DNA of 64,000 nucleotides from an uncultured Prolixibacteraceae bacterium (GTDB taxonomy: Bacteria > Bacteroidota > Bacteroidia > Bacteroidales > FEN-979), in contig CAYYPH010000019.1 in assembly GCA_964473485.1 (NCBI GenBank), positions 2,668-66,667 on the forward strand, given 5' to 3'. Shown in pieces: positions 6,478 through 34,541 of the stretch; the first letter of the stretch is position 1; each line of letters opens with the position of its first letter. The position numbers and the translations under genes are program-made. The notes under the pieces are model-generated. The model was not told the origin of the DNA and did no database searches. It worked only from the letters and a program-made list of their open reading frames with translations.

Positions 6478-6530
6478 GTAAAATACGACGAAATGCGTAT
6501 TGACCGGCCAGTTAGAGGGTAATACCTTTG
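6478..6530 (+). promoter_or_regulatory. Box A operator-promoter, copy 1 (upstream of beta-helix/HK1)
   Basis: GTAAAATACGACGAAATGCGTATTGAC contains the dyad AATACG-N8-CGTATT. It is followed after 18 nt by TACCTTTG (TAnnTTTG -7 box) at 6523, with the ATG at 6556. Confidence 0.55.
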
Positions 6531-6555
6531 GTACAGAAATTAAATCACCTGATCC

Positions 6556-9417
6556 ATGAAAACCATTCTGATGGTTGCCGTTATTGGCCTGTTGGCCGCA
6601 GCAACACAGGCTCAGATCATCCACATTCCCGATGATTATCCCACCATCCAGCAAGGGATCGATGCTACAAATAATGGGGATACCGTTCTTGTATCACCCG
6701 GAACCTATGTTGAAGGCATCTCTTTTAACGGGAAGAATATTACCGTTGCCTCTCTGGTCCTGACTACCCAGGATACCTCATACATTTCCAGGACCATCAT
6801 CGACGGCAACCAGTATGGCTTTGTTGTTGCATTCTGGCAGGAGGAAGATATTACGGCAATCCTTTGCGGATTCACCATTAAAAATGGAAATGGCGGGATT
6901 TATTGTGACCATTCCAGCCCTACCCTGTGCAACCTGATCATCAGGGAAAATTCGACTCCTGTGGGTGGTTGGGGACCTTCGCCGGGTGGTGCAGGTATAA
7001 GTTGCATCAATGCAAATCCAGTGATTAAAGATGTCATCATTACAAATAATACGTGTTCGGTTTTCGGAGGTGGGATGTCCTGCAGGCAAAACTCCTATCC
7101 TTTTCTGTCAAACATAACCATCAAGCATAACACATCTCATTCACAGGGGGGAGGGATCTTTTGCAGTGGATCCGCCCCTGTTTTTGATACCCTGAACCGT
7201 TGCAATATTTTTAATAATAGCGCATTGGAAGGGAATGACCTCTATACCGACACGTTGCTGGCTGTTACTGTAGATACCTTTAGCGTTGGGAATCCCACCG
7301 ACTTCCATGCTGCCCCTATTGCCGACTTTTCGTTCAAAATCCTGCACGGAAGGTCGGTTCAGGTAAATGCCGACCTCTATGTATCGCCCGGAGGGGATGA
7401 CAATAACAGCGGCCTTACTGCTGCAGATCCACTTAAGTCGGTTCAGTATGCCTTTTCAATCATCCGGGCCGATAGCCTGAACCGGAACACGGTCCGCCTG
7501 CTCGAAGGAATATATACTCCTTTTTCCTGTCCCGGTCTTTTTCCTCTGGACGTTCCGGATTATATTGATTTGAAAGGTGTCTCCAGAACAGCAGTCATCC
7601 TTGATGCCAAAGACGCTTCAAGGGTTCTCCAGGTAATGGACAATACATCCAATCATATTTCAGGCATGACCATTACCGGAGGATATATTTTGGGTTGCGG
7701 CGGGGGTGGGATCCTCTGCGATCAATCAAAACCCGTTTTCGAAGATTTGATTATAACCGGGAATACGGCCCAGGCAGGAGGCATCGGGATGAATATTTGC
7801 GGTATAGGTGGAGGAGGGATTCTTTGCCTTGACTCCGATCCTATTTTCAAGGATGTGATCGTTACCGGGAATTATTCTTTCATGGAAGTTGATGGATCCA
7901 CCGGTTTATTTGGAGGCCATGGAGGAGGATTGTATTTTAAAAATTCAACCCCCTTATTGCAAAATGTAACAGTAACTGCCAATGGAGCCTCATATCATGG
8001 CGGGGGCATCAGTTTCATGGGATCAGAACCACGGTTCGACTCCATCAATCGTTGTAACATATACGGCAACGTGGCATCAGGTCATCCTGGTCAGTTTGGC
8101 GGCAGCGACCTCTATGCCGATACCTTCATTGAACTTGTTGTAGATACTTTTACAGTAAGCGTTCCCAATGCGTTTCATGCACTCCCGCTAAGCAACTTCT
8201 CCTTCGACATTATCCATGGGTTACATCAGCAAATCAGCGCCAACCTCTATATTTCACCCTGGGGAGATAACCGGAACAGCGGATTGACACCGGGTGAACC
8301 CCTCAGGAACATCCAATGCGCGTTCTCTTTCATGCAATCCGACAGTCTGAATCCGCGTACGATCCATCTGCTTGAAGGCACTTACAGCAGGATGAACAGC
8401 GGGGAATTTTACCCGCTCAGGCTCCCCGGATATACCAGTATCGAAGGGATCTCTCAACAATCGGTCATCCTGGATGCCGACAGTACAAAATATGAGGCCA
8501 TTCAACTTATAAACAGTCCGGGTGTTCGTATTACAGGGATAACAATTAATGGTGGGTCGCATCATATCGGAAGCTCCACGGGTATAACCTCTTACAATGC
8601 AAATCCTTCCATCCGGGATGTCATTTTTTCAAACAATACCCTTGGAATAAACTGCTTATTTTCAGATCTGGCCCTTGAAAACGTGATCATTTCCAGCGAT
8701 GATGCTTCAAACGGGGGAAGTGGTATTTATTGTGGCTATTTTCCTTCCTCAGATAAAATCAGCCTGAAAAATGTTACAATGGTCAATGCAAGGCCTACCA
8801 GCGGTTATGCCATTTCCGGTGCGGGAGCAAATACCATGATCGTGAATTCCATTCTCAGGAATCACATTCCCTATGAAATCATTGGAGGCACTCCTGTTGT
8901 CAATTATTCGAATGTAGAGGGAGGGTGGCCGGGAGAAGGCAATATAGATGCCGACCCTCTTTTTGATACAACTGGCATCTATCCATTGGCATTAAGAAAC
9001 GGGTCTCCCTGCATCAATGCCGGCACGCCTGATACAACAGGTTATAATTTCCCGCTTACTGACCTTGCAGGAAATCCAAGAATATGGGGAGGAAGAATTG
9101 ATATGGGGGCGTATGAGTGGAATAATGTGGGGAGTGCAGAAATTCGATTTCCGAATTATGAATTACAAGTAAAGAATTTTCCGAACCCAACAAGTCAATC
9201 AACCTCTATCTCTTATAACCTCAAAGAATCAGGGAATGTGACAATCCGGGTGTTCGACAGCTACGGACAGTTCGTTGAAAAACCTTTGAGCGCTCATCAG
9301 GCAAAGGGCGAGCAGCAAGTGCCCTGGGATGCCGGGAACCTGCCGGCAGGGATATATTTCTATCGGATACAGGCCGGGAGGGAAGTGGGAGGAGGAAAGA
9401 TACTGTTAGTGAAATGA
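6556..9417 (+). CDS. Secreted right-handed beta-helix repeat protein with T9SS C-terminal sorting domain
   Basis: Signal peptide MKTILMVAVIGLLAAATQAQ and repeated N-x-G-G-G-I beta-helix turns. Has the DADPLF...GSPCINAG...GNPR...DMGAYE module and the tail FPNPTSQSTSISY...LPAGIYFYRIQ...KILLVK. Confidence 0.75.
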   Translation: MKTILMVAVIGLLAAATQAQIIHIPDDYPTIQQGIDATNNGDTVLVSPGTYVEGISFNGKNITVASLVLTTQDTSYISRTIIDGNQYGFVVAFWQEEDITAILCGFTIKNGNGGIYCDHSSPTLCNLIIRENSTPVGGWGPSPGGAGISCINANPVIKDVIITNNTCSVFGGGMSCRQNSYPFLSNITIKHNTSHSQGGGIFCSGSAPVFDTLNRCNIFNNSALEGNDLYTDTLLAVTVDTFSVGNPTDFHAAPIADFSFKILHGRSVQVNADLYVSPGGDDNNSGLTAADPLKSVQYAFSIIRADSLNRNTVRLLEGIYTPFSCPGLFPLDVPDYIDLKGVSRTAVILDAKDASRVLQVMDNTSNHISGMTITGGYILGCGGGGILCDQSKPVFEDLIITGNTAQAGGIGMNICGIGGGGILCLDSDPIFKDVIVTGNYSFMEVDGSTGLFGGHGGGLYFKNSTPLLQNVTVTANGASYHGGGISFMGSEPRFDSINRCNIYGNVASGHPGQFGGSDLYADTFIELVVDTFTVSVPNAFHALPLSNFSFDIIHGLHQQISANLYISPWGDNRNSGLTPGEPLRNIQCAFSFMQSDSLNPRTIHLLEGTYSRMNSGEFYPLRLPGYTSIEGISQQSVILDADSTKYEAIQLINSPGVRITGITINGGSHHIGSSTGITSYNANPSIRDVIFSNNTLGINCLFSDLALENVIISSDDASNGGSGIYCGYFPSSDKISLKNVTMVNARPTSGYAISGAGANTMIVNSILRNHIPYEIIGGTPVVNYSNVEGGWPGEGNIDADPLFDTTGIYPLALRNGSPCINAGTPDTTGYNFPLTDLAGNPRIWGGRIDMGAYEWNNVGSAEIRFPNYELQVKNFPNPTSQSTSISYNLKESGNVTIRVFDSYGQFVEKPLSAHQAKGEQQVPWDAGNLPAGIYFYRIQAGREVGGGKILLVK

Positions 9418-9504
9418 GTTCCCAGTTTCATCAAGAAATTTTCTGACAGAAGGGTGACCGCCTCTAAAATCGACCTATCTTTATATCGCTATTCCCTTCT
9501 TTTC

Positions 9505-11817
9505 ATGACCACTTTGAAGCAAGCCATCGCGAGGATCCCTTTTTGGGCTTACTTGGTTGTACTTGTATCAATGTTTGTGAACACCGTGTACTTTGTATTT
9601 ACATACGCGGCAATCGTTGTTTATTCAGAATCTCCCGTCACTCCGGTGTTTTCCTGGGCGGTGTACCTTACAACCATTCTGTTTGGTACCGGCAGTCTCT
9701 ATCTTCTATACAAAAAGCCTGGTGATCGCCCGGTCAGGATTTTCTTTTTCTACGTACAGTTTTTTGTAATTATGATCAATGCAGGAAACCTTTTTGTGCT
9801 GAATCCTTTGATCAATATTGTGAATATTGTCTTCCATACAACCTGTTTTATTGGTTCAGTTCTAATCAGTTTCCATCTCGTATTTCCGAAAACGGTAAAA
9901 TATTACAACACATTAAGGAGCGTTTCATGGATCATCTATGTATTTACCACAATAGTTGTTAGTTGTTATTCAGCAAGTTATATTTACTCTGTTTATAATG
10001 AATTAACGCCTGACTCCTTTTTTTTCGTTGCTGAACGAATCGCTTTATGGTGGCTCACATTAACTTATATAGGTGCCTTGGCAATTGCTGTTTACCAGTA
10101 TGCTACTTTGAAAGACACACTCTTAAAAAACCAGGTGTTCATTGTCTGTATAGGATCTCTTTTCGGATTAATCACACCAATGTGCCTGGCTTTGTTCTAT
10201 GATTTTATCCTTCCTTTAACTTTTAAAAATCCCAATCCAATTGTTATTTCCCAAGGTATTTGCAGTTTAATCACCATCTGCTGCATCCTCACCGCCATCT
10301 TCCGTTACCGCATCTGGGATATCGAGGTCGTCATCCGGAAAGCCTTGCTGTACCTGGGAGCCACCGCCATCATCATCTTGTCGTACCTCTTCCTGGTCTG
10401 GCTCATTGATCAGTTCACGGCCGGAGCCACCGATCTGATCCGCTTTGCCGCCCTGGGCATTTCCGTAATCCTCTTCCTCGTTCTCCGCGACCGCATCCAG
10501 CGGCTGATCGACCGGATCTTTCACCGCGAGACCTACGACTCTGCCACGGTAGTATCCGATTTTGAAGCAAAACTGGCGGGGATTTACAGGTTTGATGAGT
10601 TGAAACAGAAAATTGTCCAGAGTCTTGATGAGATCTTCCATTTTAAATCCTTTGTTTTTAACCTGAAGAAAAACAACCAGATCTATGAACCCGCTTATGC
10701 TTTAGGGATCGATGATACGGACATTCCAGCAGAATATGAGATCTCCGCCGAAATTGAAGACAGACTCAGGAAATCAAAGGTCTTTTCCCCTCAAGAGTTG
10801 AATGTGACGTCCCCTGTGCTTGAAACGATCAAAGGAGACCTCATTGTTCCGATGGTATCCGAAGGTCAACCGGAAGGGTTTTTTATCTGCGGACAGAAAA
10901 AGTCGGAGCGGATCTATTCCCGGCAGGACATCAACGTGCTCTCATTGCTTGCGAGAAGAGTGGTTGCCATGCTTCATACCGCCAGCCTTTACCAGAAAGA
11001 TCTTGACCGCCAACTGATGCTTGAACGTGAACGCGCCCGCATCGCCCAGGACATGCACGACGACATCGGCGCGGGACTGACAAAAATCGCCATGATCAGC
11101 GAAGCGCCTGTTCAAGTTCCCGGTCAGCAGTCACTTACTGCAAACTTACTCTCAGATCGCTTGAAGAAGATTGCAACATCTTCCCGCGACATGATCTCCC
11201 GCCTGAACGTGATCGTCTGGGCGCTGAATCCCCGGTATGACAATCTTGAAAGCCTGGTCAGCTATCTTCGGAGATATTTCGGGGAATACCTTGAAAACTT
11301 CGGAATTCAATTCAGCACCGGATTTCTGGAAGAGGTACCCGAACGTGCCATCACACCCGACACCCGGCGTAACATCTTCTATATCATTCAGGAGGCCATT
11401 CACAATGCGGTCAAGCACAGCGGCTGCACAGAGATCGGCCTTGACATTGCATTCTACTCCGGGTCGCCGCACAATTCCACGGGCTTTAAACTTCAATCCC
11501 CCCTTGAAACCAATGACTGCACTTCCCTGCCACGCCATAATACCAATGACCTCATGCCACCACTGCATCACACGACCGGTGACTCCCTCACACTACAACC
11601 TCCTCGCCCTGAAGGAGAGGGGAAGAAGGAAAAGAGGCGCTATACCTTAACCTTCATCATCATCGACAACGGTAAGGGATTTGACCAGGTCAAAACCGGT
11701 TCCGGCGGAAACGGTCTGCTGAACATGAAAAAGCGGGCGGAGGAACTGTCGGGGACTTGCGAAGTTCAAAGTTCACCGGGGAAAGGGACCAAAATTACAG
11801 TACGGGTAAACATTTAA
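9505..11817 (+). CDS. Sensor histidine kinase HK1: multi-pass membrane, GAF-like, HisKA_3, HATPase_c (no PDZ)
   Basis: The start is trimmed to MTTLKQAIARIPFWAYL by analogy with the paralog N-termini. H-box ERERARIAQDMHDDIGAGL, N-box EAIHNAVKHS, G-box DNGKGFD...GNGLLNMKKR. Has a long insertion between the N and G1 boxes. Confidence 0.85.
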   Translation: MTTLKQAIARIPFWAYLVVLVSMFVNTVYFVFTYAAIVVYSESPVTPVFSWAVYLTTILFGTGSLYLLYKKPGDRPVRIFFFYVQFFVIMINAGNLFVLNPLINIVNIVFHTTCFIGSVLISFHLVFPKTVKYYNTLRSVSWIIYVFTTIVVSCYSASYIYSVYNELTPDSFFFVAERIALWWLTLTYIGALAIAVYQYATLKDTLLKNQVFIVCIGSLFGLITPMCLALFYDFILPLTFKNPNPIVISQGICSLITICCILTAIFRYRIWDIEVVIRKALLYLGATAIIILSYLFLVWLIDQFTAGATDLIRFAALGISVILFLVLRDRIQRLIDRIFHRETYDSATVVSDFEAKLAGIYRFDELKQKIVQSLDEIFHFKSFVFNLKKNNQIYEPAYALGIDDTDIPAEYEISAEIEDRLRKSKVFSPQELNVTSPVLETIKGDLIVPMVSEGQPEGFFICGQKKSERIYSRQDINVLSLLARRVVAMLHTASLYQKDLDRQLMLERERARIAQDMHDDIGAGLTKIAMISEAPVQVPGQQSLTANLLSDRLKKIATSSRDMISRLNVIVWALNPRYDNLESLVSYLRRYFGEYLENFGIQFSTGFLEEVPERAITPDTRRNIFYIIQEAIHNAVKHSGCTEIGLDIAFYSGSPHNSTGFKLQSPLETNDCTSLPRHNTNDLMPPLHHTTGDSLTLQPPRPEGEGKKEKRRYTLTFIIIDNGKGFDQVKTGSGGNGLLNMKKRAEELSGTCEVQSSPGKGTKITVRVNI

Positions 11818-11904
11818 TTTTTTTCGACTGTGTTCGAAATCAACTGTGATCGAAATGTTACCGTTAACTCCAAAGGGTTTGGCTTTGCCTGGTTGCCTCT
11901 TATT

Positions 11905-11957
11905 GTGAAATACGACGAAATGCGTATTGACGGAGACCTGCTTTCTTATTACTTTTG
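11905..11957 (+). promoter_or_regulatory. Box A operator-promoter, copy 2 (upstream of RR1)
   Basis: GTGAAATACGACGAAATGCGTATTGAC matches copy 1 at 26 of 27 nt. It is followed after 18 nt by TACTTTTG at 11950. The RR1 ATG is at 11962, so the mRNA is leaderless or uses the ATG at 11992. Confidence 0.55.
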
Positions 11958-11961
11958 AATC

Positions 11962-12603
11962 ATGCCAGGATCATCAGGTAAAATCAAAATCATGATCGTC
12001 GAAGACGACCGGGAGATGCGGGAAGGGCTGGAACTGATCGTCCGCTCAAATCCGGCCCTGGAATGCATTGGATCCTGTTCCTCGGGAGAGGAGGCGGTCG
12101 AAACCATTCCGGATCATGTACCCGACATTGTTCTGATGGACATTCACCTTCCCGGGCTCTCGGGAATTGATTGCGTAAAGCAGTTAAAACCACTCATGCC
12201 GTTCACACAGTTCATGATGTGCACGGTATACGAAGATAATGAAAACGTCTTTGATTCACTCTGCGCGGGAGCTACCGGCTACCTGTTGAAAAACAGCCCT
12301 CCGTCAAAAATAACGGAGGCCATCGTCGACCTCTACCAGGGCGGTTCTCCCATGTCTTCAGTCATCGCGCGGAAAGTGATCCAGACCTTTATTCCCGCCC
12401 CTGAAAAGAGCAGCGAAATTGAAAAACTGACCGTTCGGGAGCGGGAACTGCTCGACCTGCTTTCGAAAGGATATCGTTACAAAGAGATCGCCGACAGGCT
12501 TGGCATCAGCTTTGAGACCGTCCGCACACACATCCACAACATTTACGAGAAACTGCATGTACAGTCGAGGACCGAGGCGCTGAACAAGATCTATCCCAGA
12601 TAA
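11962..12603 (+). CDS. NarL/FixJ (LuxR-type HTH) response regulator RR1
   Basis: Receiver IMIVEDDREMREGL...[12 protein letters not shown] and HTH LTVRERELLDLLSKGYRYKEIADRLGISFETVRTHIHNIYEKL. The start could instead be the ATG at 11992 if the adjacent -7 box is the promoter. Confidence 0.9.
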   Translation: MPGSSGKIKIMIVEDDREMREGLELIVRSNPALECIGSCSSGEEAVETIPDHVPDIVLMDIHLPGLSGIDCVKQLKPLMPFTQFMMCTVYEDNENVFDSLCAGATGYLLKNSPPSKITEAIVDLYQGGSPMSSVIARKVIQTFIPAPEKSSEIEKLTVRERELLDLLSKGYRYKEIADRLGISFETVRTHIHNIYEKLHVQSRTEALNKIYPR

Positions 12604-12613
12604 AAACCATCCC

Positions 12614-12667
12614 CTACTGCCTACTGCAAACTGCCTACTGCAAACTACCAACTGCAAACTGCCAACT
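12614..12667. repeat. Heptamer array WACTGCM x ~7 (CTACTGCCTACTGCAAACTGCC...)
   Basis: Read directly. Lies between the RR1 stop and the HK2 start. Confidence 0.9.
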
Positions 12668-12706
12668 TCTTCATATCTTTACTCAACCTTTTTTCATACC
12701 CTCTCC

Positions 12707-15079: not shown

Positions 15080-15143
15080 CACTGCACCGCATTTCATGTG
15101 AATGGGCAGCCAGGCTCCCGGTAACCATTTCAGCACAATGTGA

Positions 15144-15190
15144 TAACACGAAAAGGGGATACCTTTTAGCAATTCTTCGTTGTACTTTAG
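15144..15190 (+). promoter_or_regulatory. Box C operator-promoter, copy 1 (upstream of RR2)
   Basis: TAACACGAAAAGGGGATACC, then TACTTTAG at 15183, 39 nt from the hexamer. The -7 box deviates at position 7. GATACCTTTT inside the box is an alternative -7. Confidence 0.4.
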
Positions 15191-15207
15191 CCGCTCATTA
15201 TCCATCG

Positions 15208-15861
15208 ATGTCAGAAACATTCAAATTACCCGGTAATCCCATCCGGATTGCGGTGGTGGAAGACGATAAAATGGTCAGGGAAGTGCTGGAGATTCTTCTC
15301 AGCGGTTCTCCCGGGTTTACGTGTGCCGCAGCCTATGAAGACGGTGAATCCGCTCTCGCCGGCCTCCCGGAAGTGAGTCCCAACGTTGTATTAATGGACA
15401 TCCACCTGCCGGGCATCAGCGGTATCGAATGCATAACAAGGCTTAAAGCGATGAATCTGTCAATGTTGTTCATCATGCTGACCATCTTTGAAGATTCCGA
15501 TGCCGTGTTTCATTCGCTGGCTGCAGGTGCATCCGGGTACCTGGTTAAACAAACCCCGCCGGCAAAATTGCTTGAAGCCATCCAGGATGTTTACCTTGGC
15601 GGTTCGCCCATGTCGCGGGAAATTGCCCGAAAAGTAGTTCAATCCTTCCAACACCCGGTTACAGCAGCCGATCCTGATATCAACCTGACCAAACGGGAAG
15701 ACGAAATCCTGTTATACCTTGTAAAAGGGATGCTGTACAAGGAGATAGCCGCTTTATTGTCCATCAGCGTGGAAACCGTCCGAACACACCTCCGTCATAT
15801 CTACGAAAAACTCCAGGTACGTACACGCAGCGAGGCCATCGTAAAGTATCTTACAAAATAA
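15208..15861 (+). CDS. NarL/FixJ (LuxR-type HTH) response regulator RR2
   Basis: [14 protein letters not shown]...[12 protein letters not shown]; [46 protein letters not shown]. Confidence 0.9.
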
Positions 15862-16036
15862 GTTTTAAGTTTTCAGTTCACAGTTTCCAGTTTAACCAAC
15901 TACCGACTGACATGCGGACTAGTGAGCAAGTGGACAAGCGGACAAGTTACCTTAACTGCAAACTGCCTAATGCCTACTGTCTATTGCCTACTGCCAATTG
16001 CCTATTGCCTATTGCCTATTGCCTTCTGCCTACTTG
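15862..16036. repeat. Mosaic array: (AGTTTTM)n, (GACAAGYG)n, (TGCCTAY)n
   Basis: Read directly. It starts at the RR2 stop codon (AAATAAGTTTTAAGTTTT) and ends with TGCCTATTGCCTATTGCCTATTGCCTTCTGCCTAC. Confidence 0.9.
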
Positions 16037-16084
16037 TAACACCAAATGGGGATTGACTTACTCGTTTCTGTAATCGTACATTTG
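16037..16084 (+). promoter_or_regulatory. Box C operator-promoter, copy 2 (upstream of Ycf48-like copy 1)
   Basis: TAACACCAAATGGGGATTGAC, then TACATTTG at 16077, 40 nt from the hexamer. Confidence 0.45.
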
Positions 16085-20769: not shown

Positions 20770-20796
20770 TATCTCCACCTTTCAGGTCATCCATGT

Positions 20797-20846
20797 AATT
20801 ACTACTTTTTGGTGATACCGCCTGCATTTTTCCCGGAATAACTTTG
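20797..20846 (+). promoter_or_regulatory. Box B operator-promoter, copy 1 (upstream of FISUMP gene)
   Basis: AATTACTACTTTTTGGTGATACC, then TAACTTTG at 20839, 39 nt from TACTAC. ATG at 20861. Confidence 0.55.
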
Positions 20847-20860
20847 ATGGAAAAAACGCC

Positions 20861-22207: not shown

Positions 22208-22259
22208 AAATTACTACTTTTTGGTGATTGAATCCGGCAAGCGGTTGGTGATACCTTTG
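22208..22259 (+). promoter_or_regulatory. Box B operator-promoter, copy 2 (upstream of GH-like propeller/M28)
   Basis: AAATTACTACTTTTTGGTGATTGA, then TACCTTTG at 22252, 40 nt from TACTAC. ATG at 22280. Confidence 0.55.
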
Positions 22260-23602: not shown

Positions 23603-23634
23603 GTGTAGATACTTTGCCCAATTGCCTGAAACAC

Positions 23635-25785: not shown

Positions 25786-25803
25786 GCGGTAGAACTGTTC
25801 ACC

Positions 25804-25846
25804 GGCGAGGGGCAATTCAACAATTTGCCTCTCGCCACCTTTTTTC
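25804..25846 (+). terminator. Rho-independent terminator after the M28 peptidase gene
   Basis: GGCGAGGGGCAA / TTGCCTCTCGCC forms a 12-bp stem (one G-U) with an 8-nt loop, followed by ACCTTTTTTC. Confidence 0.7.
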
Positions 25847-25876
25847 ATACATTTACTACGGCCAACATCACCTTCC

Positions 25877-28276: not shown

Positions 28277-28303
28277 TACACACCCTCTCAGGGTGCAGGT
28301 AAG

Positions 28304-28353
28304 AAATACTACTTTTTGGTGATACCTTTTCTCTTGCGATCATTGTAATTTAG
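28304..28353 (+). promoter_or_regulatory. Box B operator-promoter, copy 3 (upstream of RR3)
   Basis: AAATACTACTTTTTGGTGATACC, then TAATTTAG at 28346 (39 nt; an imperfect -7 box). ATG at 28371. Confidence 0.45.
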
Positions 28354-28370
28354 CTGTTAATTAATATCGG

Positions 28371-29024
28371 ATGAAATACACGGGAAATGAATATACAGAA
28401 CCTATCCGGATTGCCCTGGTAGAAGATGATAAAACCGTCAGGGAAGGATTGCAGATGCTCCTCAATGGCTCCCCCGGATTCACCTGCGTGGCTGCATACA
28501 ACAGCGGGGAAGATGCCCTTGCAGGGATTCCTGATATGCTGCCGGAAGTGACGCTTATGGACATCAACCTTCCCGGCATCAACGGTATCGAATGTATACT
28601 TAAGCTCAAGGAACAGCAATTACCCATTCTCTTCATCATGCTGACGGTTTTCGAAGACGCCGACGCCATCTTCCGGTCGCTTTCAGCAGGTGCATGCGGA
28701 TATTTACTCAAACATACCCCACCCGCAAAACTGCTGGAAGCCATCCAGGATGTCTACCGGGGCGGTTCTCCCATGTCGGGGGAGATCGCACGAAAGGTGG
28801 TTCAGTCATTTCAGCAGGTACCCGCAAAAAACCATGACCAGGCCAACCTGACGAAACGGGAAGAGGAGATCCTCAACCTCCTGTCGCAAGGATATTTTTA
28901 CAAAGAGATCGCCCATTCTCTTTCCATCAGCGTCGAAACCGTCCGCACCCACATTCGCAACATCTACGAAAAGCTACAGGTCAGGACCCGGACGGAGGCA
29001 ATTCTGAAGTACTTGGGAAAGTAG
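28371..29024 (+). CDS. NarL/FixJ (LuxR-type HTH) response regulator RR3
   Basis: IALVEDDKTVREGL...TLMDINLPGING; [46 protein letters not shown]. By eye about 70% identical to RR2. Confidence 0.9.
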   Translation: MKYTGNEYTEPIRIALVEDDKTVREGLQMLLNGSPGFTCVAAYNSGEDALAGIPDMLPEVTLMDINLPGINGIECILKLKEQQLPILFIMLTVFEDADAIFRSLSAGACGYLLKHTPPAKLLEAIQDVYRGGSPMSGEIARKVVQSFQQVPAKNHDQANLTKREEEILNLLSQGYFYKEIAHSLSISVETVRTHIRNIYEKLQVRTRTEAILKYLGK

Positions 29025-29064
29025 GCAGTAGGCAGTTTCAAGTTGGCAGTTGCCAGTTGGCAGT
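29021..29064. repeat. Heptamer array GTAGGCAG/AGTTGGCAG (reverse complement of the 12614 unit family)
   Basis: Read directly. The RR3 stop TAG is inside the first unit (AAGTAGGCAGTAGGCAG). Confidence 0.9.
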
Positions 29065-29096
29065 CGATCGTAAACGGGAGTCACCAGAAAAAATAT

Positions 29097-30449
29097 ATGG
29101 CCATGAAAACAAAATGTTCATTATTTGCGATTTTCCTTTTTGCCACCATTTTTACCATGGGGCAATGGACCACCACCTATTTTTCGCAGGCAGTCATTCG
29201 AACGGGTGGTGTGAAACTCGGCAACAAAGCTTGTTTCGCGGGGGGCTCGTCGGCCAACGCGGGAAACTGGTTTGATACCGACAATATCGAGATCTACGAC
29301 ATGGCAACCGGGACCTGGGAGATCGACCATCTGACCCAGGCACGAGCCTATGCCGTCGGGGTGACCTGCGGCGACAAGGCTTTTTTCGCCGGGGGGTTGA
29401 TGAGCTATCCTTTTCCTTCATCAAGAGTGGATATCATTACCACTGCAGGGATATGGGATTATTACGACCTCTCCATCCCCAGGTTTTCCCTTGCTGCGGT
29501 GGCCAACGACACCCTGGCATTGTTTGCAGGCGGTGTGGATATCAGCCTGAACCAGGTTTATGATGTGGTCGACATGTACCATGCGAACACAAATACCTGG
29601 ACGCTTTCAAACCTCTCGGTACCGCGGTGCGCAATGGGATTTGCGGCGGTCGGCGGCCGGGCCTTCTTTGCCGGGGGCATGAATGTCGACAACAGCATGG
29701 TTTACAACAGGGTCGACATCTACAATTTTTCCGACGGAACCTGGGACACGGCTTCCCTCTCGCAGGCAAGGGGCCATATCGGGACCACTGTGGTCGGCCA
29801 GAAGGTGATCTTTGCCGGGGGCAGCCTGGCAAACAGCGTGGTGAGCGACCGGGTCGACATCTTTGACCTGGGCACAGGCCAATGGAGCACTACGACCATG
29901 CCCGCGCCCAAGGCATTTTCCATCCATCAATCGGTTACCTTCGGCGATAAAGCCTGGTTCGTTGCAGGATCCGTCTTCAACAACGGCTGGGATACCGATT
30001 CGGATACCATCGACATCTTTGACCCGGCCGACAACACCTGGTCGGTTTTGATCATGCCGAGCCGGCTCAACGACCATACGGTGATTGTGATGGACACCTC
30101 GGTGCTGATCGGGGGCGGCTGGACATTCACAACCTACCCCTGGGGAAATCCACAGGACGAGATGTATATCTACAGTGATCCCTCCGTTGGCACCGGCCGC
30201 AACCATCCAAATAGCAAAGATATGGTGCTGTATCCCAATCCTGCCAGGGGAACGATTACGATCGAAACACGGAGGGTTCCGGCAGGAACAAGTCTAATCA
30301 TCTCCGGCATTCAGGGTCGCCCCCATATGGTTGTACCCATCACCCAGGGAAGAGCGACGGCCGACATCCGGGAGTTGCCGGCAGGCATCTATATTGTGCA
30401 GCTGACAACCGCAAACTCTTCATTGGTCGCAAAGTTTGTCAAGGAGTGA
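29097..30449 (+). CDS. Kelch-repeat (six-blade) protein with T9SS tail
   Basis: The start is trimmed to MAMKTKCSLFAIFLFATIFTMGQW. Six units of the form FFAGG...V(D)IY(D)...G(T)W. Tail YPNPARGTITIET...LPAGIYIVQL...AKFVKE. Confidence 0.75.
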   Translation: MAMKTKCSLFAIFLFATIFTMGQWTTTYFSQAVIRTGGVKLGNKACFAGGSSANAGNWFDTDNIEIYDMATGTWEIDHLTQARAYAVGVTCGDKAFFAGGLMSYPFPSSRVDIITTAGIWDYYDLSIPRFSLAAVANDTLALFAGGVDISLNQVYDVVDMYHANTNTWTLSNLSVPRCAMGFAAVGGRAFFAGGMNVDNSMVYNRVDIYNFSDGTWDTASLSQARGHIGTTVVGQKVIFAGGSLANSVVSDRVDIFDLGTGQWSTTTMPAPKAFSIHQSVTFGDKAWFVAGSVFNNGWDTDSDTIDIFDPADNTWSVLIMPSRLNDHTVIVMDTSVLIGGGWTFTTYPWGNPQDEMYIYSDPSVGTGRNHPNSKDMVLYPNPARGTITIETRRVPAGTSLIISGIQGRPHMVVPITQGRATADIRELPAGIYIVQLTTANSSLVAKFVKE

Positions 30450-30463
30450 CCGGCCATACCCAG

Positions 30464-30513
30464 AAATACTACTAATTGGTGATTGATTCCCCCTCGTCAC
30501 AAAAGTAACTTTG
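30464..30513 (+). promoter_or_regulatory. Box B operator-promoter, copy 4 (upstream of Ycf48-like copy 2)
   Basis: AAATACTACTAATTGGTGATTGA, then TAACTTTG at 30506, 39 nt from TACTAC. Confidence 0.5.
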
Positions 30514-30669
30514 TTCGTCGGTTATCAACTGCACTGCCCGGATACCTGATAAGACTGATCATCCACCGGACACCGCGCTGATCGATATTCCCCAATGGCG
30601 ACAGGACATCATTTGTCAAAATTTCATAAGACCATGAAAAATATTGGTTCGAAGAAACACAAACCGAAT

Positions 30670-32736
30670 ATGAAAAGAATTAACCTCCTGATGATGGCAC
30701 TCTGGCTGACCGGGGTGAATGCCATCGCCCAATGGCAAACGGTCAATCCGCTGCCGACCGGGCAAAGTTTATACGGCCAATGCTTTACGGATGAAAACAC
30801 CGGGTACCTGGTTGGTTACAACGGGGTTATCTTTAAAACTGTGGATGGTGGCGACAGTTGGAAAAGCAAGGAATCAGCAACCACCGAAGTGCTCTGCAGT
30901 GTCTCCTTCCCCGATGCACTCAACGGCTACGCAGCCGGCGAGCACGGAACCATCGTAAAAACGACCGATGGCGGGAATACCTGGGTTTCGCTTAACACGG
31001 GTTCATACGTCGATCTTTCATCCATATGTTTTACGGATGCAACTACCGGTTATGCAGCCGGGTTTGGAGGGACCATCCTGAAAACCACCGACGGGGGCGT
31101 CACCTGGCTGTCCAAACAGGCCGGGACCACGCGGTGGCTCCGTTCCGTTTGCTTTCCTACCGCGTCGACTGGCTATGCAGTGGGCGACAGCGGAACCATC
31201 CTCAAGACCGTCAACGGAGGAAACAGCTGGAATCTGCTCTCTTCCAACACCACGCATCGCCTGTATTCTGTTGACTTTGTGGATGAAATCCGGGGATTTG
31301 CAGTGGGGGGCACCGAGGCGGCCGCATTGCAGGGGGTCATCCTCCGGACCACGGATGGCGGGCAGTCGTGGGGAATCTATCCAACGTCATTCAACCAGGT
31401 ACTGACATCGGTCTCCTTTCCTTCTGCAAATACCGCTTATGCCGTCGGTTTCAACGGTAAAATGGTCAGAACCACCGATGCTGGAGTGACCTGGAATGCC
31501 GTTTCCACCGGGAATCCGAATCAGTTGAACTCAGTCTTATTCACCAGCGCATCAAACGGCAGGATTATTGGCAATGACGGTACCATAATCTATACAGCCA
31601 ACGGCGGAGATGCATGGACACGGCAAGGAGCTGTCACCGCAAAGGGACTCCGGGATCTCTGCTTCCCCACTCCATCGGTGGGGTATACCGCCGGCCTTTC
31701 GGGAACCATTCTTAAAACGACCGATGGCGGAAACAGCTGGAACCGCCTGGAGTCGGGCACTCCGGCCGACTTCTTTGCCATCGATTTCCCGGAACCGGGC
31801 GTTGGGTATGTTACAGGCTGGAGTGGCAGGATCTTAAAAACCACCGACGGAGGATTAACGTGGGTCTCATTGCCCGTTGGGCCTCAGCCGCCCCTGTTTT
31901 GCGTCCGTTTCCAGGATGTTAACACCGGTTATGCCGCCGGGATGAATGGAGTCATCCTGAAGACCACGAATGGAGGGACGAGCTGGACCCCACTGGCCAC
32001 CGGGGTCACGGAATGGATCTTCACCCTCTGTTTCCCTGATCCGGCCACCGGGTATGCCTTTACCTATGATGGATCGGTACTAAAGACGACCGATAGCGGC
32101 GTAACCTGGAGCAAGATCTACGCTTCCGAAGACCTGAGCCTGATCTCGGCAGATTTCACCGATACCGCCACCGGTTGTGCGGTGGGCACCAACGGTACCA
32201 TCCTCAGGACCACCGACGGAGGTGCGACCTGGACCAGCATACCATCGGGAACCAATTACAGGCTGATGGATGTGCAGTTCCTGGATGACGACCGGGGTTT
32301 TATCTCGGGTGATCACGGAATGATCTTAAAGACTGTGAACGGAGGACTATCCTGGTCAAGCCAGAACTCAGGAACCAGCTATGATCTTCCGGCTGTTTGT
32401 TTTTATGATGCCAACCACGGATGTGCCGTGGGTGACTTTGGCACGATCCTGACCGGGCTGGATTACGGGGTCGGCAATTACGAGAATGCGCAACAGGCCG
32501 GTCTTTTCATCTTCCCCAATCCTGCCACTGATTGGGTATCCATCGGAGCCCCGGATGCATCCGTTTCATTCCCGGCTGAAGTATCCATTTTCGGGATCGA
32601 CGGGAAGGAAGTGATCCGATGGGAAACCAGTAAAAGGACCGTTAAAACCGATGTCCGGACATTACCCCCCGGGCTTTATTTCGTTCGATACCGGGCTGAT
32701 GACAGGGCCTTTACGGGAAAATTCGTCAGGCCTTGA
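30670..32736 (+). CDS. Ycf48/BNR-like beta-propeller repeat protein with T9SS tail, copy 2
   Basis: The start is trimmed to MKRINLLMMALWLTGVNAIAQW (ATGs at 30595 and 30634 are also possible). Same GTIxKTTDGGxxW repeat as 16178..18238 but GC-rich. Tail FPNPATDWVSIG...LPPGLYFVRY...GKFVRP. Confidence 0.75.
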   Translation: MKRINLLMMALWLTGVNAIAQWQTVNPLPTGQSLYGQCFTDENTGYLVGYNGVIFKTVDGGDSWKSKESATTEVLCSVSFPDALNGYAAGEHGTIVKTTDGGNTWVSLNTGSYVDLSSICFTDATTGYAAGFGGTILKTTDGGVTWLSKQAGTTRWLRSVCFPTASTGYAVGDSGTILKTVNGGNSWNLLSSNTTHRLYSVDFVDEIRGFAVGGTEAAALQGVILRTTDGGQSWGIYPTSFNQVLTSVSFPSANTAYAVGFNGKMVRTTDAGVTWNAVSTGNPNQLNSVLFTSASNGRIIGNDGTIIYTANGGDAWTRQGAVTAKGLRDLCFPTPSVGYTAGLSGTILKTTDGGNSWNRLESGTPADFFAIDFPEPGVGYVTGWSGRILKTTDGGLTWVSLPVGPQPPLFCVRFQDVNTGYAAGMNGVILKTTNGGTSWTPLATGVTEWIFTLCFPDPATGYAFTYDGSVLKTTDSGVTWSKIYASEDLSLISADFTDTATGCAVGTNGTILRTTDGGATWTSIPSGTNYRLMDVQFLDDDRGFISGDHGMILKTVNGGLSWSSQNSGTSYDLPAVCFYDANHGCAVGDFGTILTGLDYGVGNYENAQQAGLFIFPNPATDWVSIGAPDASVSFPAEVSIFGIDGKEVIRWETSKRTVKTDVRTLPPGLYFVRYRADDRAFTGKFVRP

Positions 32737-32867
32737 ATCGGATCCGTGCCCGGCAGTTCAGGATGATTTTGAACACGGGAGAATTCCGGCATGTTGGAAC
32801 AAGCATCAGACCAAGCATCAACGACTGAATCAAAACAAGACAAAATGAAATAATAATTCCCCTTGCC

Positions 32868-34541
32868 ATGAAAAAGAACATCATCGCTATAATGCCCGGC
32901 CTCCTCGTGGTTCTTCTGTTGATGCCGGCATCCGCCCTAACGCAAGTCTTAAACAACGCCGCTGACAAGATTATCGTGAAATTCATTGAACCGATTGATC
33001 CGGTTATTTCCAGGAACAGTGACCAGGTCATCCGGTTTAACCTTCCGGAGGTAGATGAATTGAATACCCGGTATGGTTGTCAGGAAGCACGCAGGCTGCT
33101 CCAGGGGCCGAAGAGTATGAACCGGTCCCGAATCTGGTTACTGAGGTTCAGGGGCGCACCCGATATTGCCACATTAATCCGTGAATACCAGGCAACCGGC
33201 CATTTCCGTTATGTAGAACCTGACTGGACCGGCACGTTGGCCGGGACCCATTCACCGGATGATCCACCCAGCGACCTCTATTTTTACCGCCAATGGTCTT
33301 TGTTTAACGACGGGACCTTCCCATACATGCCCGCCAAAATCGGGGCGGATATCGACATGCTGCCGGCGTGGGAGATTGAAGAAGGCGACTCCGCCCTCAT
33401 AGCCGGCATCCTCGACACCGGGTGCAAACTGGATCATCCCGAGTTTTCAGGCAGGATCTGGACAAACGATGGCGAAATTCCGGGTAACGGGATCGATGAT
33501 GACAACAATGGTTTCATTGACGACGTGCATGGGTGGAACTTCGCCTATGGGAACAATGATCCTACCGACGACAACGGGCACGGGACCTGTGTTGCCGGTG
33601 TCCTGGGTGCGAATGGAAACAACGGGATGGGTTACGCCGGCGTGAACTGGCACTGCAAGCTGCTGAATATGAAAGTGCAGGACAATATGGGCTACGGCTA
33701 TTACTCCGCCTGGATCGATGCCATTCACTACTGCGTTGAAAACGGTGCCAGGGTGCTGAACATGTCGCTCGGCGGAACCCAGAACTCAAATGCGCTGCAC
33801 GATGCCATCGATTATGCCTTGTCGCACAACGTGGCCATCGTGGCGGCCATGGGGAACAACAACACGGTTTTGCCGTTGTATCCGGCCGCATACCCGGGTG
33901 TGATCGCAGCCGGGTCAACCGATCCCGACGACACCCGGTCCTTGCCATTTGTTGGTGGAGAGGCAGGCAGCAATTATGGTCAGCACATCTCGGTGGTCGC
34001 CCCCGGAAACTATATTTTCGGCCTCGATTACCTCCATGACTATGAATATTACTGGGCGTGGTCAGGTACCTCGTTTGCCACGCCGCATATTGCCGGGGTA
34101 GCCTCCCTCCTGTTCTCCCAGGATCCAGGCAGGACGCCCGCCGCGGTCAAGTCCATCATGGAAAATACCGCCGATGACCTGGTGGGCAATCCCTACGAAG
34201 ATACACCGGGCTGGGACCAGTATTATGGCTATGGACGGCTCAATGCCTTCCAGGCTTTATCGGGGGATAAATCGTTAAGGATGCATGCGTTGGCTGTGGA
34301 GCCGATACTCATCTTCCCAAACCCAACCAGCGGACCCGTGACCATCACACAAAGGACTTCTTCACCCGGATTGCCTTCCGAGATCATCATCACCGACATC
34401 CTGGGCAGGGAACATTCCCGAACACCTGCGTCTACCGCGTCAACGCACCTAAACCTGGGTTCTGAGCCCGCGGGGATCTACCAGGTGACCGTTACCGACG
34501 GTAAAAAGATCTGGAGGGGGAACGTGGCAGTGGTCAGGTAA
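32868..34541 (+). CDS. Subtilisin-like S8 serine peptidase with T9SS tail
   Basis: Catalytic triad contexts ILDTGCKLDHPEF, HGTCVAGVLGA, GTSFATPHIAGVASLL. Tail FPNPTSGPVTIT...EPAGIYQVTV. Confidence 0.9.
   Translation: MKKNIIAIMPGLLVVLLLMPASALTQVLNNAADKIIVKFIEPIDPVISRNSDQVIRFNLPEVDELNTRYGCQEARRLLQGPKSMNRSRIWLLRFRGAPDIATLIREYQATGHFRYVEPDWTGTLAGTHSPDDPPSDLYFYRQWSLFNDGTFPYMPAKIGADIDMLPAWEIEEGDSALIAGILDTGCKLDHPEFSGRIWTNDGEIPGNGIDDDNNGFIDDVHGWNFAYGNNDPTDDNGHGTCVAGVLGANGNNGMGYAGVNWHCKLLNMKVQDNMGYGYYSAWIDAIHYCVENGARVLNMSLGGTQNSNALHDAIDYALSHNVAIVAAMGNNNTVLPLYPAAYPGVIAAGSTDPDDTRSLPFVGGEAGSNYGQHISVVAPGNYIFGLDYLHDYEYYWAWSGTSFATPHIAGVASLLFSQDPGRTPAAVKSIMENTADDLVGNPYEDTPGWDQYYGYGRLNAFQALSGDKSLRMHALAVEPILIFPNPTSGPVTITQRTSSPGLPSEIIITDILGREHSRTPASTASTHLNLGSEPAGIYQVTVTDGKKIWRGNVAVVR

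Follow-up and report, generated by a model that had tools for sequence, protein, structure and literature searches.

Genes of the locus and their products

Between 6.5 and 34.5 kb of the window, by which we mean the whole 64-kb stretch of DNA analysed here, 15 ORFs on the plus strand encode four paralogous histidine kinases (HK1 to HK4), three NarL/LuxR-type regulators (RR1 to RR3), seven T9SS-tagged proteins and one FISUMP protein. The original prediction had given this gene order on one strand over 28 kb, and the plus-strand ORF coordinates (6556-34541) bear it out; gene order and domain content can both be read directly from the sequence. The features are as follows.

6556..9417, +, beta-helix protein (DUF1565, choice-of-anchor Q) with a T9SS type A C-terminal domain; predicted secreted
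9454..11817, +, HK1: multi-pass membrane, GAF-like, HisKA_3, HATPase_c; PDZ domain deleted in frame
11962..12603, +, RR1: NarL/LuxR-type; recognition helix THIHN; clade pairs with TAC[A/G/C]AC boxes
12707..15079, +, HK2: TM1, PDZ, multi-TM, GAF-like, HisKA_3, HATPase_c
15208..15861, +, RR2: NarL/LuxR-type; recognition helix THLRH; clade pairs with TAACAC boxes
16178..18238, +, first Ycf48-like/BNR beta-propeller (PSII_BNR) with a T9SS C-terminal domain
18361..20769, +, HK3: HK2-like architecture with PDZ; without an adjacent regulator
20861..22198, +, FISUMP-domain protein: putative signal peptide; weak internal sorting-like Ig domain, residues ~80-150
22280..23602, +, GH-like propeller: weak GH130/GH43-like match; T9SS C-terminal domain
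23614..25785, +, M28 peptidase with a T9SS C-terminal domain
25804..25836, +, intrinsic-terminator-like hairpin: 12-bp stem then T run; dG -25.9 kcal/mol, z -6.0
25877..28276, +, HK4: TM1 13-33, PDZ 36-112, nine TM helices 116-413, GAF-like 420-545, HisKA_3 547-644 and HATPase_c 651-798
28371..29024, +, RR3: NarL/LuxR-type; recognition helix THIRN; clade pairs with TACTAC boxes
29043..30449, +, Kelch propeller with a T9SS C-terminal domain; true start codon probably near 29097
30595..32736, +, second Ycf48/sortilin-like BNR propeller (PSII_BNR) with a T9SS C-terminal domain
32868..34541, +, S8 subtilase with a T9SS C-terminal domain

The HK1 start codon lies 36 nt past the stop codon of the beta-helix cargo gene, the M28 gene begins 11 nt past the GH-like propeller gene, and the hairpin at 25804..25836 is predicted to end the GH-like/M28 unit. 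Two cargo genes, the beta-helix gene and perhaps the first Ycf48-like one, lie directly 5' of a kinase gene. Scans for generic sigma-70 promoters and for terminators returned counts close to chance and are uninformative for promoters of the Bacteroidetes type. Pfam searches of the 6.5-34.5 kb span found no TonB-dependent receptor or SusD domain and no sigma-factor gene; with a SusC/SusD pair, transporter domains and biosynthesis domains all absent, the span is neither a polysaccharide utilisation locus nor a biosynthetic cluster, as had been proposed. Heptamer tandem repeats 3' of the regulator genes were considered as a part of the system and dropped, being common genome-wide (9 of 29 regions downstream of regulators vs 38 of 279 other intergenic regions).

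HisKA_3 and HATPase_c domains are present in all four kinases (Pfam), which share 44-55% pairwise identity and have conserved catalytic residues, the DxGxG and GNG motifs included; in a set of 88 sequences, H592, N704, D751/G753/G755 and G765/G767 never vary, and N766 is kept in at least 90%. The shared multi-pass, GAF-like, HisKA_3 and HATPase_c architecture that had been described for the four proteins is correct as far as it goes, but it overlooked that HK2, HK3 and HK4, though not HK1, have a periplasmic PDZ domain in the stretch that separates TM1 from TM2. This domain is matched by Pfam and NCBIfam models, agrees with an AlphaFold model and is annotated on many homologues. In a PDB profile search with the sensor region, query residues 41-121 matched PDZ domains, those of DegP, DegQ and RseP (E 1e-8 to 1e-3), and nothing else was hit, so that the TM and GAF parts have no relative of solved structure; a fold search of the whole model against the PDB returned only kinase cores and GAF-containing phytochromes, with nothing on the membrane domain. 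The architecture had also been called unusual, which does not hold, since the PDZ/multi-TM/GAF sensor module has ~14,900 cluster representatives with various output domains in many phyla and its topology is that of ComP (PMC9620489). In phyla without T9SS, such as the Blastocatellia, the same sensor is found joined to output domains of the GGDEF, SpoIIE and cyclase types, and it is therefore not specific to T9SS.

All three regulators carry Response_reg and GerE domains (Pfam) together with the receiver Asp and the EDD and LMDI motifs, in line with their predicted NarL/LuxR type, and are 50-70% identical to one another. A Por-type sorting domain had been predicted at the C-termini of seven cargo proteins, and each of them is recovered: six pass the Pfam cut-off for Por_Secre_tail (27 bits), and the seventh (22280-23602), at 24.5 bits in Pfam, passes the NCBIfam model TIGR04183 (27.3 vs a cut-off of 23). 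The internal sorting domain proposed for the FISUMP protein is present at residues 86-133 but weak (22.0 bits vs a cut-off of 23). A ninth cargo gene suggested upstream does exist as an ORF (3687-5168), although it lies on the minus strand, scores 22.6 bits vs the same cut-off and has no promoter box. Our own CTD model found eight CTD ORFs in the 64-kb window, all at 3.7-34.5 kb and none at 34.5-64 kb. Hydrophobic N-termini are visible in all cargo sequences, and two of the cargo proteins are paralogous to each other. Their C-termini are generic type A endings, in which we saw none of the module-specific residues expected for private PDZ-cargo recognition.

A 20-bp box at fixed distance from the -7 element

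Upstream of many of these genes lies a 20-bp box, TAMNACNWWWWGSKKATWSM, which ends 19-20 nt 5' of the Bacteroidetes -7 element TAnnTTTG. It occurs eight times in the window, against 0.08 occurrences expected, and all eight are intergenic, on the plus strand, and precede the three regulator genes and five cargo units.

6484..6503, +, class A box TACGACGAAATGCGTATTGA, with -7 box TACCTTTG 19 nt downstream; before the beta-helix cargo gene
11911..11930, +, class A box; upstream of RR1, a candidate self-regulation site
15144..15163, +, class B box TAACACGAAAAGGGGATACC; upstream of RR2
16037..16056, +, class B box; upstream of the first Ycf48/BNR cargo gene
20800..20819, +, class C box TACTACTTTTTGGTGATACC; upstream of the FISUMP gene
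22212..22231, +, class C box; upstream of the GH-like propeller/M28 unit
28307..28326, +, class C box; upstream of RR3
30467..30486, +, class C box; upstream of the second Ycf48/sortilin-like cargo gene

The box at 6484..6503 is predicted to drive the beta-helix cargo gene, and probably HK1 as well. The M28, Kelch and S8 genes have no box of their own, which for the Kelch gene points to probable co-transcription with RR3, and for the S8 gene to either read-through from the previous gene or separate regulation.

The eight sites of the window served to define the box in the first place, which makes the count in the window alone circular; independent support comes from other loci. We built a matrix from the box and compared 31 non-redundant family loci, containing 33 family kinases and 29 regulators, with 54 control loci, among them loci with sorting-domain genes. 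At a threshold of at least 18 bits the matrix gave 65 plus-strand matches and one minus-strand match, all in family loci, and none in the 54 control loci; the exact box pattern is likewise confined to family loci and on the plus strand every time. The gene 3' of the plus-strand matches is a regulator in 27 cases and a sorting-domain cargo gene in another 27, and a kinase in only two. A -7 box follows 62 of the 65 sites, at a distance of 19 nt (43 sites), 20 nt (18) or 18 nt (1), and the box is conserved among loci while the flanking sequence diverges. In a box-first search, 48 metagenome stretches were found to bear the box, 21 of them with a regulator directly upstream and 12 with a recognisable sorting-domain gene downstream (a frameshifted one in two more).

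Box and regulator vary together. Three variants of the left hexamer, TACGAC, TAACAC and TACTAC, match three regulator clades, whose members are 71-82% identical to RR1, RR2 or RR3 and split cleanly by box class, and the window holds one of each. The box before the regulator and the box before the cargo have the same left hexamer in 16 of 19 modules, a number reached in none of 20,000 permutations (mean 5.2). With no more than three ancient clades behind it, the agreement of box class with regulator clade amounts to about three independent events. The original prediction spoke of three private modules, and a shared box whose variants track the regulator clade fits that description. Like the fixed spacing, the match between class and clade is directly visible in the sequences.

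The protein that recognises the box might instead be an alternative sigma factor, a global regulator or the like, while the two-component systems control something else. The box occupies a position overlapping that of the -33 promoter element, clear two-fold symmetry is seen in class A alone, and the TACTAC box is also found with TPR-type HisKA_3 kinases and targets without sorting domains, all of which would suit this explanation. These TPR-kinase loci, however, again have a regulator of the same family (~207-210 aa) directly upstream of the box. Box class furthermore tracks the clade of the adjacent regulator, both boxes of one module share their hexamer, the -7 box is of the housekeeping-sigma type, and no sigma-factor gene was detected in those modules whose neighbours were scanned with Pfam. 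We consider recognition by another factor to be very unlikely.

Conservation of the module in other Bacteroidota

In the comparison set, a regulator lies at most three genes downstream of 30 of the 33 family kinases. A same-strand sorting-domain gene occupies the +1 position of 20 of the 29 regulators (69%), and one is present within +3 in 24 of 29, compared with a background rate of 8 in 143 (5.6%) for genes more than five positions away; Pfam confirmed Por_Secre_tail in 48 of 49 sorting-domain neighbours. The order kinase, regulator, T9SS cargo recurs in Bacteroidales, Lentimicrobiaceae, Prolixibacteraceae, Draconibacterium, Cyclobacteriaceae and Saprospiraceae MAGs. Among the complete genomes with the family are JBGGIW010000003.1, CAVVMO010000001.1 and CAVPBC010000002.1. 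A search for this synteny in related Bacteroidota had been suggested as a check, and the linkage is conserved, so that the genes are not the scattered, unlinked set the original prediction had allowed for.

These results bear on whether the clustering is a chance or local-duplication by-product that has set unrelated two-component and T9SS cargo genes side by side. T9SS cargo genes are numerous in such genomes, and the kinases, the regulators and two of the cargo proteins in the window are paralogues, as this reading would expect. It is already contradicted by the conserved linkage, kept in ~30 other species-level genomes or contigs at the +1 rate given above, and by the box evidence, a shared cis element being conserved where its flanks are not. 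The three module types moreover are ancient orthologous groups rather than recent copies, and we regard a chance origin as extremely improbable.

The idea of a dedicated island stands in that the regulatory modules are tied to cargo, but the conserved unit is the single module and not the 28-kb island, in which three ancient types of module are clustered. No cargo class is tied to one module type, the cargo families having been reassorted between all three, and 26 of 29 box-driven genes in other genomes are homologous to the window's cargo classes. The target families that recur are beta-helices, propellers of the Ycf48/BNR, Kelch and GH130-like kinds, and peptidases of the S8 and M28 families. 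Orthologous relationships are less clear-cut for the kinases than for the regulators, above all in the case of HK3 and its uncertain partner: the four kinases of relatives that most resemble HK3 and have a downstream regulator are followed by an RR3-type one in two loci (L008, L009) and by an RR1-type one in two others (L018, L021).

A literature search for T9SS-linked HisKA_3 or PDZ kinase systems found no description of one, in keeping with the original prediction, which knew of no described system with such a layout. Judging from these comparisons, the regulon family is real, conserved and recurrent in many uncultured Bacteroidota, and apparently undescribed. To our knowledge, little is known about the regulation of individual T9SS cargo genes, PorXY-SigP controlling machinery genes and not cargo. 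The present module of kinase, regulator, 20-bp box and cargo is now sequence-defined and conserved, it comes with a predicted specificity code in which three box hexamers correspond to three recognition-helix variants, and the box lets regulons be predicted from sequence in uncultured Lentimicrobiaceae and other Bacteroidales.

The proposed circuit, its signal and known systems

We propose that the span comprises three separate two-component modules and one extra kinase, drawn from a conserved Bacteroidota family, and that the modules activate the adjacent cargo genes; we put the probability of this at about 0.72. Each kinase, with its TM1, periplasmic PDZ, about nine TM helices, GAF-like, HisKA_3 and HATPase_c domains, would sense a signal outside the cytoplasm or in the membrane and phosphorylate its own NarL/LuxR-type regulator, which would bind the 20-bp box ending 19-20 nt 5' of the sigmaA-type -7 element and activate the adjacent cargo genes as well as its own gene, in positive feedback. 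That the regulators bind the box, that they activate and do not repress, and that kinases and regulators pair in this way is inferred here from sequence comparison. Specificity would lie in the left hexamer, with TACGAC read by RR1, TAACAC by RR2 and TACTAC by RR3. Within the window, the predicted RR1 regulon would comprise the beta-helix cargo gene with HK1, and RR1 itself; that of RR2 would comprise RR2 itself and the first Ycf48-like cargo gene; and that of RR3 would comprise the FISUMP gene, the GH-like propeller with M28, RR3 with Kelch, the second Ycf48-like cargo gene and perhaps S8.

The distance of 19-20 nt to the -7 element places the box at about -51 to -32, where class II activators of the LuxR type have their sites. 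In LuxR-type class II activation, a 20-bp lux box centred near -42.5 overlaps the -35 region. The boxes described here resemble it in length, in their fixed promoter distance and predicted centre near -42, and in standing upstream of the regulator's own gene as well as target genes. They differ in that dyad symmetry is weak and the promoter is of the Bacteroidetes TAnnTTTG type, and the regulators are phosphorylation-dependent receiver-GerE proteins and not acyl-homoserine-lactone binders.

As to the signal, our best guess, at somewhat less than even odds, is that the PDZ domain reads a peptide, or the exposed C-terminus of a protein, in the periplasm. PDZ domains in general bind C-terminal strands, as DegS does with the C-termini of outer-membrane proteins, and those of DegS, RseP and DegP read exposed C-termini or unfolded proteins. 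The kinase PDZ is of the same sequence type, but forms part of a histidine kinase, where it separates TM1 from TM2, and is not joined to a protease. The kinases could monitor secretion traffic instead of the environment, with the sorting domains of cargo still in the periplasm as PDZ ligands and each module linking T9SS capacity and cargo synthesis in a feedback loop. This suggestion concerns the signal alone and is compatible with the proposed circuit. The DegP/RseP type of the PDZ and the tight linkage of cargo genes to kinases, two of them (one only possibly) directly upstream of a kinase gene, are consistent with it, as is a precedent in Porphyromonas gingivalis, where the sorting domain of PorA binds the kinase PorY in the periplasm and the last beta-strand matters (PMC12152298). 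Several observations argue against it, namely that the cargo C-termini are generic type A endings lacking a module-specific pattern, so that three separate kinases would redundantly read the same motif, that the same sensor occurs with GGDEF, SpoIIE and cyclase outputs in phyla without T9SS, and that HK1 has no PDZ and must work without one, if at all. We judge the secretion-traffic signal unlikely. A more specific form, in which the PDZ would bind the C-terminal strand of sorting domains lingering in the periplasm, generalising PorA-PorY and making each module a secretion-coupled feedback circuit, is somewhat less probable again; if true, the synthesis of a fixed set of surface propellers, beta-helices and proteases would be tuned to the capacity of the secretion machine, with the three box/regulator pairs acting as independent channels.

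Beyond this question of signal, the regulators of the proposed modules have a GerE output and adjoin their kinases, whereas PorX carries an enzymatic output domain instead of GerE and porX and porY are not adjacent. PorY is also without the PDZ/multi-TM/GAF sensor. The predicted targets in the window are the cargo genes themselves, and the span has no sigma-factor gene; PorXY-SigP of P. gingivalis controls secretion-machinery genes via an ECF sigma factor (PMC12152298, PMC7712824). The likeness consists in a two-component system tied to T9SS and, on the PorXY side, in a sorting-domain protein, PorA, that signals to a kinase in the periplasm (PMC12152298).

A further possibility is that the kinases, like ComP, serve as receptors of a pheromone, a peptide or lipopeptide that is secreted, which would make the modules quorum-sensing circuits that induce secreted proteins at high density. 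Positive feedback through a regulator gene with its own box is typical of such circuits. The kinase core of ComP is HisKA_3-class, and its partner ComA is NarL/LuxR-type and controls secreted products. In a published AlphaFold model, Bacillus ComP shows TM1 and a PDZ-like extracellular loop, with a total of ten TM segments, followed by domains that the paper labels HisKA and HATPase_c (PMC9620489), a layout shared with our kinase model from TM1 and the PDZ-like domain through about nine further TM segments and a cytoplasmic linker to the kinase core. This is a likeness of topology; the NCBIfam matches of the kinases are of the PrsK, NarX and LiaS types, with none to ComP among them. Neither a comQ/comX-like isoprenyl transferase gene nor a small pheromone gene was found beside the modules of the window or in six related loci, and the host differs as a Gram-negative Bacteroidota with T9SS cargo targets and three parallel modules. 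We consider a pheromone receptor quite unlikely.

The proposed circuit has a further parallel in PrsK/PrsR, where PrsK belongs to an NtrC-family two-component system PrsR is a sigma-54 enhancer-binding protein, and the PEP-CTERM box contains a sigma-54 site (Haft et al. 2006, PMC1569441). In both systems a multi-pass GAF kinase and a regulator are linked to genes with a C-terminal sorting signal (PMC1569441; TIGR02916), and a conserved DNA box precedes the sorting-signal genes. The window differs in its HisKA_3 transmitter, its NarL-type receiver-GerE regulator and its sigmaA -7 promoter (TAnnTTTG), in sorting by T9SS (Por_Secre_tail targets) rather than exosortase, and in having no PrsT-like TPR lipoprotein. 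The TM and GAF region of HK2 matches the PrsK model TIGR02916 with E 3e-8 (residues 157-560, model positions 39-455 of 679). Scores of the kinases against this model are 20-37 bits, the best being HK2 with 37 bits at full length and 32.6 bits for the sensor region, all far below the equivalog cut-off of 300. The large, uncharacterised PDZ/multi-TM/GAF sensor module appears to be common to PrsK-like and ComP-like kinases.

Gene content of the island and its conservation in relatives

The original prediction named fifteen genes on one strand between 6.5 and 34.5 kb, and we recovered fifteen plus-strand ORFs there in exactly that order:

6556-9417 (+), beta-helix cargo
9454-11817 (+), kinase HK1
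11962-12603 (+), regulator RR1
12707-15079 (+), kinase HK2
15208-15861 (+), regulator RR2
16178-18238 (+), first Ycf48-like cargo
18361-20769 (+), orphan kinase HK3
20861-22198 (+), FISUMP protein
22280-23602 (+), GH-like propeller
23614-25785 (+), M28 peptidase
25877-28276 (+), kinase HK4
28371-29024 (+), regulator RR3
29043-30449 (+), Kelch cargo
30595-32736 (+), second Ycf48-like cargo
32868-34541 (+), S8 protease

Pfam searches identified HisKA_3 and HATPase_c in the four long membrane proteins and Response_reg and GerE in the three ~215-aa proteins. Among the cargo, the matches were to DUF1565 (a beta-helix protein), PSII_BNR (both Ycf48-like propellers), FISUMP, M28 (a peptidase), Kelch (a propeller) and S8 (a subtilase). 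Mutual identity is 44-55% among the kinases, 50-70% among the regulators and 39% between the two Ycf48-like proteins. The seven cargo expected to end in a T9SS sorting domain all do so, six scoring above the Pfam Por_Secre_tail cut-off and the seventh (22280-23602) above that of the NCBIfam version. Two further assignments held only in part: the internal sorting domain proposed for the FISUMP protein is a resemblance that scores just below threshold, and the proposed ninth cargo is encoded on the minus strand and likewise falls just short. The FISUMP resemblance lies in an N-terminal domain (residues about 80-150) with YPNP...G..F motifs that precedes the FISUMP domain, and in that position it probably does not direct secretion. 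With a home-built model made from window sequences, eight sorting-domain ORFs were detected in the 64 kb, all within 3.7-34.5 kb and none in the other 30 kb; the flanking genes are unremarkable and encode a ROK kinase, an esterase, a radical SAM protein and a ribonucleotide reductase.

Among the best 120 of 199 matches, relatives of HK4 are full-length, about 45-68% identical, from sources named Bacteroidales, Bacteroidetes or Lentimicrobium; many are annotated with PDZ, and a single contig often carries several. Kinase, regulator and Por_Secre_tail genes were consecutive in five neighbourhoods on long contigs. Scanning a single genome for each species yielded about 25 further loci with full-length relatives, in MAGs of Bacteroidales, Lentimicrobiaceae, Prolixibacteraceae, Draconibacterium, Cyclobacteriaceae and Saprospiraceae, and 54 loci sharing only the kinase core, which served as controls; ORFs in the fetched loci were called and then labelled with home-built models. 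A regulator lies no more than three genes downstream of 30 of the 33 full-length family kinases, and a same-strand sorting-domain gene follows the regulator directly in 20/29 cases (within three genes in 24/29), compared to a background of 8/143 more than five genes away. Pfam confirmed Por_Secre_tail in 48 of 49 of these neighbour proteins, which belong to recurring families: PSII_BNR (10), Kelch (9), Recep_L/LRR (8), sortilin-like (6), S8 (3), GH130-like (3), M28 (2) and Chlam_PMP beta-helix (2). The kinase/regulator/cargo linkage is therefore kept in relatives, rather than the genes being scattered and unconnected; chance clustering is excluded.

Some modules are interrupted. In one related locus (L003), four AAA_14/DUF4143 ATPase genes (8584-9930, 12361-13698, 14723-15985 and 20168-21328), three of them on the opposite strand, lie between kinase, regulator and cargo genes, which looks like repeated insertion into the intergenic gaps of the module; a gene of this type also lies at the island border in the window (5144-6304, minus strand). 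In a Lentimicrobium genome (L001, 12352-13259), an opposite-strand AbiEii/DUF6922 toxin-antitoxin-like pair splits kinase from regulator, and the box ahead of the regulator, a putative promoter element, is intact.

The nearest window paralogue of HK3 is HK4 (55%). In relatives, the kinases most like HK3 that have a downstream regulator precede RR3-type regulators in two loci (L008, L009) and RR1-type regulators in two others (L018, L021), so both types are candidate partners of HK3.

A putative promoter box and the matching regulator clades

We spotted a recurring sequence in the intergenic regions of the window, with the pattern TAMNACNWWWWGSKKATWSM. With up to one mismatch it has eight window matches against 0.08 expected, all intergenic and on the plus strand, a circular count in that the pattern was drawn from the same sites; the independent test comes from other loci. 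The exact pattern has 21 further matches in the fetched loci, in family loci only and in kinase orientation only. With a 26-nt matrix and a threshold of 18 bits, 66 matches were obtained, 65 on the plus strand and all in family loci; the 54 control loci, some carrying sorting-domain genes, gave none. The gene downstream of the 65 sites is a regulator in 27, sorting-domain cargo in 27, a kinase in two and another gene in seven (including the window FISUMP gene), with two sites at contig ends. The order in the canonical module is kinase, box, regulator, box, cargo.

Housekeeping promoters in Bacteroidetes have TAnnTTTG as their -7 element. The motif TAnnTT[TA][GA] follows the box in 62 of the 65 sites, at 19 nt in 43, 20 nt in 18 and 18 nt in one, and no conservation was found between or around the two elements. 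From this spacing, the box would lie at roughly -51 to -32, where LuxR-type class II activators bind.

Putative transcription units in the window (box position, class, genes probably driven)
6484, A: beta-helix cargo and, after a 36-nt gap, HK1
11911, A: RR1
15144, B: RR2
16037, B: first Ycf48-like cargo
20800, C: FISUMP gene
22212, C: GH-like propeller and M28 (11-nt gap), with a strong hairpin and T run at the end
28307, C: RR3 and Kelch cargo
30467, C: second Ycf48-like cargo, perhaps S8

No box lies immediately ahead of any of the four window kinase genes, HK1 being placed behind the box-driven beta-helix cargo. In some loci (e.g. L001 13302, L018 13306) the right half of the box is extended into a near-perfect palindrome, GGGGATTGCAATCCCC, at box positions 12-27 and with its centre near -32; overall the extension shows weak conservation, and it is mostly absent from window sites and at most partial at 22212.

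The variable part of the box is its left hexamer. Regulator-upstream and cargo-upstream boxes carry identical hexamers in 16 of the 19 modules having both sites, compared to a permutation mean of 5.2 (0/20,000 permutations reach 16). The regulators form three clades, with members 71-82% identical to RR1, RR2 or RR3, that are split cleanly by hexamer: recognition helix THIHN occurs with TAC[A/G/C]AC, TH(I/L)RH with TAACAC and THIRN with TACTAC. The window holds one regulator of each clade. This match amounts to only three ancient events, and is consistent with regulator-box recognition rather than proof of it. Binding of the box by a different factor is unlikely, since the hexamer tracks the regulator clade. 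The best-supported reading is that of three separate two-component channels, each of which would switch on the gene of its own regulator and the neighbouring T9SS cargo via a class-specific box.

The kinase sensor and its possible signals

The AlphaFold model of HK4 (mean pLDDT 81.9) comprises TM1 (residues 13-33), a beta-rich domain (36-112), nine helices (116-413), a GAF-like domain (420-545), dimerisation helices (547-644) and an ATPase domain (651-798). The common architecture originally proposed for the kinases holds in all four for HisKA_3 and HATPase_c, but it missed the PDZ domain that HK2, HK3 and HK4 carry in the periplasm, between TM1 and TM2. The sensor-region profile matched only PDZ domains in the PDB, those of DegP, DegQ and RseP (E 1e-8 to 1e-3); the TM and GAF part gives a weak match to the PrsK model (E 3e-8), and the membrane part of the TM1/PDZ/multi-TM/GAF front end (e.g. 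window 25877-27601; P0166-P0229) has no Pfam family match. Searched against 1.84 billion representatives, the profile of the sensor retrieved 14,886 proteins at E <= 0.001, of which 89 reached E <= 1e-30. Ten of the more distant members, at least one of them from Blastocatellia (a class of Acidobacteria), join the same front end to HisKA, HisKA_3, SpoIIE, GGDEF or adenylate/guanylate cyclase outputs. The front end is thus a widespread portable input module that is not T9SS-specific.

The PDZ domain points to a periplasmic peptide or an exposed C-terminus as the signal. The sorting domains themselves are a candidate ligand, with a precedent in PorA-PorY (PMC12152298), although cargo C-termini show no module-specific pattern and the sensor also occurs outside T9SS phyla. 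A published model of Bacillus ComP has the topology seen in the HK4 model, including a PDZ-like loop with proposed ComX peptide binding (PMC9620489); a ComP-like pheromone is possible, but no comQ/comX-like gene was found near the modules in the window or in six related loci.

In HK1 the PDZ domain has been cleanly lost in frame, so that TM1 leads directly into TM2, and the PDZ match is also absent in two relatives (L016 5030, L019 9881), where starts may be mis-called; kinases of this kind may be signal-blind. The ATPase domain contains Pro/Ser-rich inserts (such as SLTSPPSPLSFKERGSKG) that separate the N box from the DxGxG (G1) motif, at residues 723-741 in HK4, in the same place in HK3 and longer in HK1; most relatives lack them, and model confidence there is low.

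Range of the proposed regulon and nearest known systems

Searching metagenomes for the class C box with its -7 element returned only 48 stretches, 21 with a same-strand regulator directly upstream and 12 with a recognisable sorting-domain gene downstream; two loci outside the 12 carry a frameshifted one. About nine of the 48 pair the same regulator family with a TPR-HisKA_3 kinase type. Five such loci (L087, L092 8569-12960, L093, L113 1089-4623, L129 5495-8922) have an RR3-like regulator and the TACTAC box with its -7 element, and their downstream proteins (540 aa or ~245 aa) have no Pfam match and no sorting domain. These loci appear to be a sister regulon on the same operator; the pairing of regulator and box is thus a more general device of Bacteroidota, with the T9SS cargo tie belonging to the PDZ-kinase branch. 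Of 29 box-driven genes from other genomes, 26 are homologous to window cargo classes, and no cargo class is fixed to a module type.

The nearest concept is Haft's PrsK/PrsR, with a common box upstream of PEP-CTERM genes (PMC1569441); its sensor is related to that of the window kinases, whereas transmitter, regulator, sigma factor and sorting system differ. Our literature searches turned up no account of a HisKA_3 or PDZ kinase family linked to T9SS cargo, nor of the box. There is nothing conceptually unusual in a two-component system that adjoins its targets; the novelty lies in the conserved module, the defined operator code and the recurring cargo toolkit.

Lastly, 7-nt tandem arrays occur at window 12616-12667, 15859-16032, 29019-29064 and 35507-35744, and also after ORFs ending at 977, 55012, 56778, 59589 and 60280, with varying units (ACTGCCA, TGCCTAT, AGTTGGC, CGTGACG and others) and often starting 10-30 nt past the stop codon. 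They occupy 47 of 308 intergenic regions in related loci, and are therefore a feature of the whole lineage rather than a component of the island.
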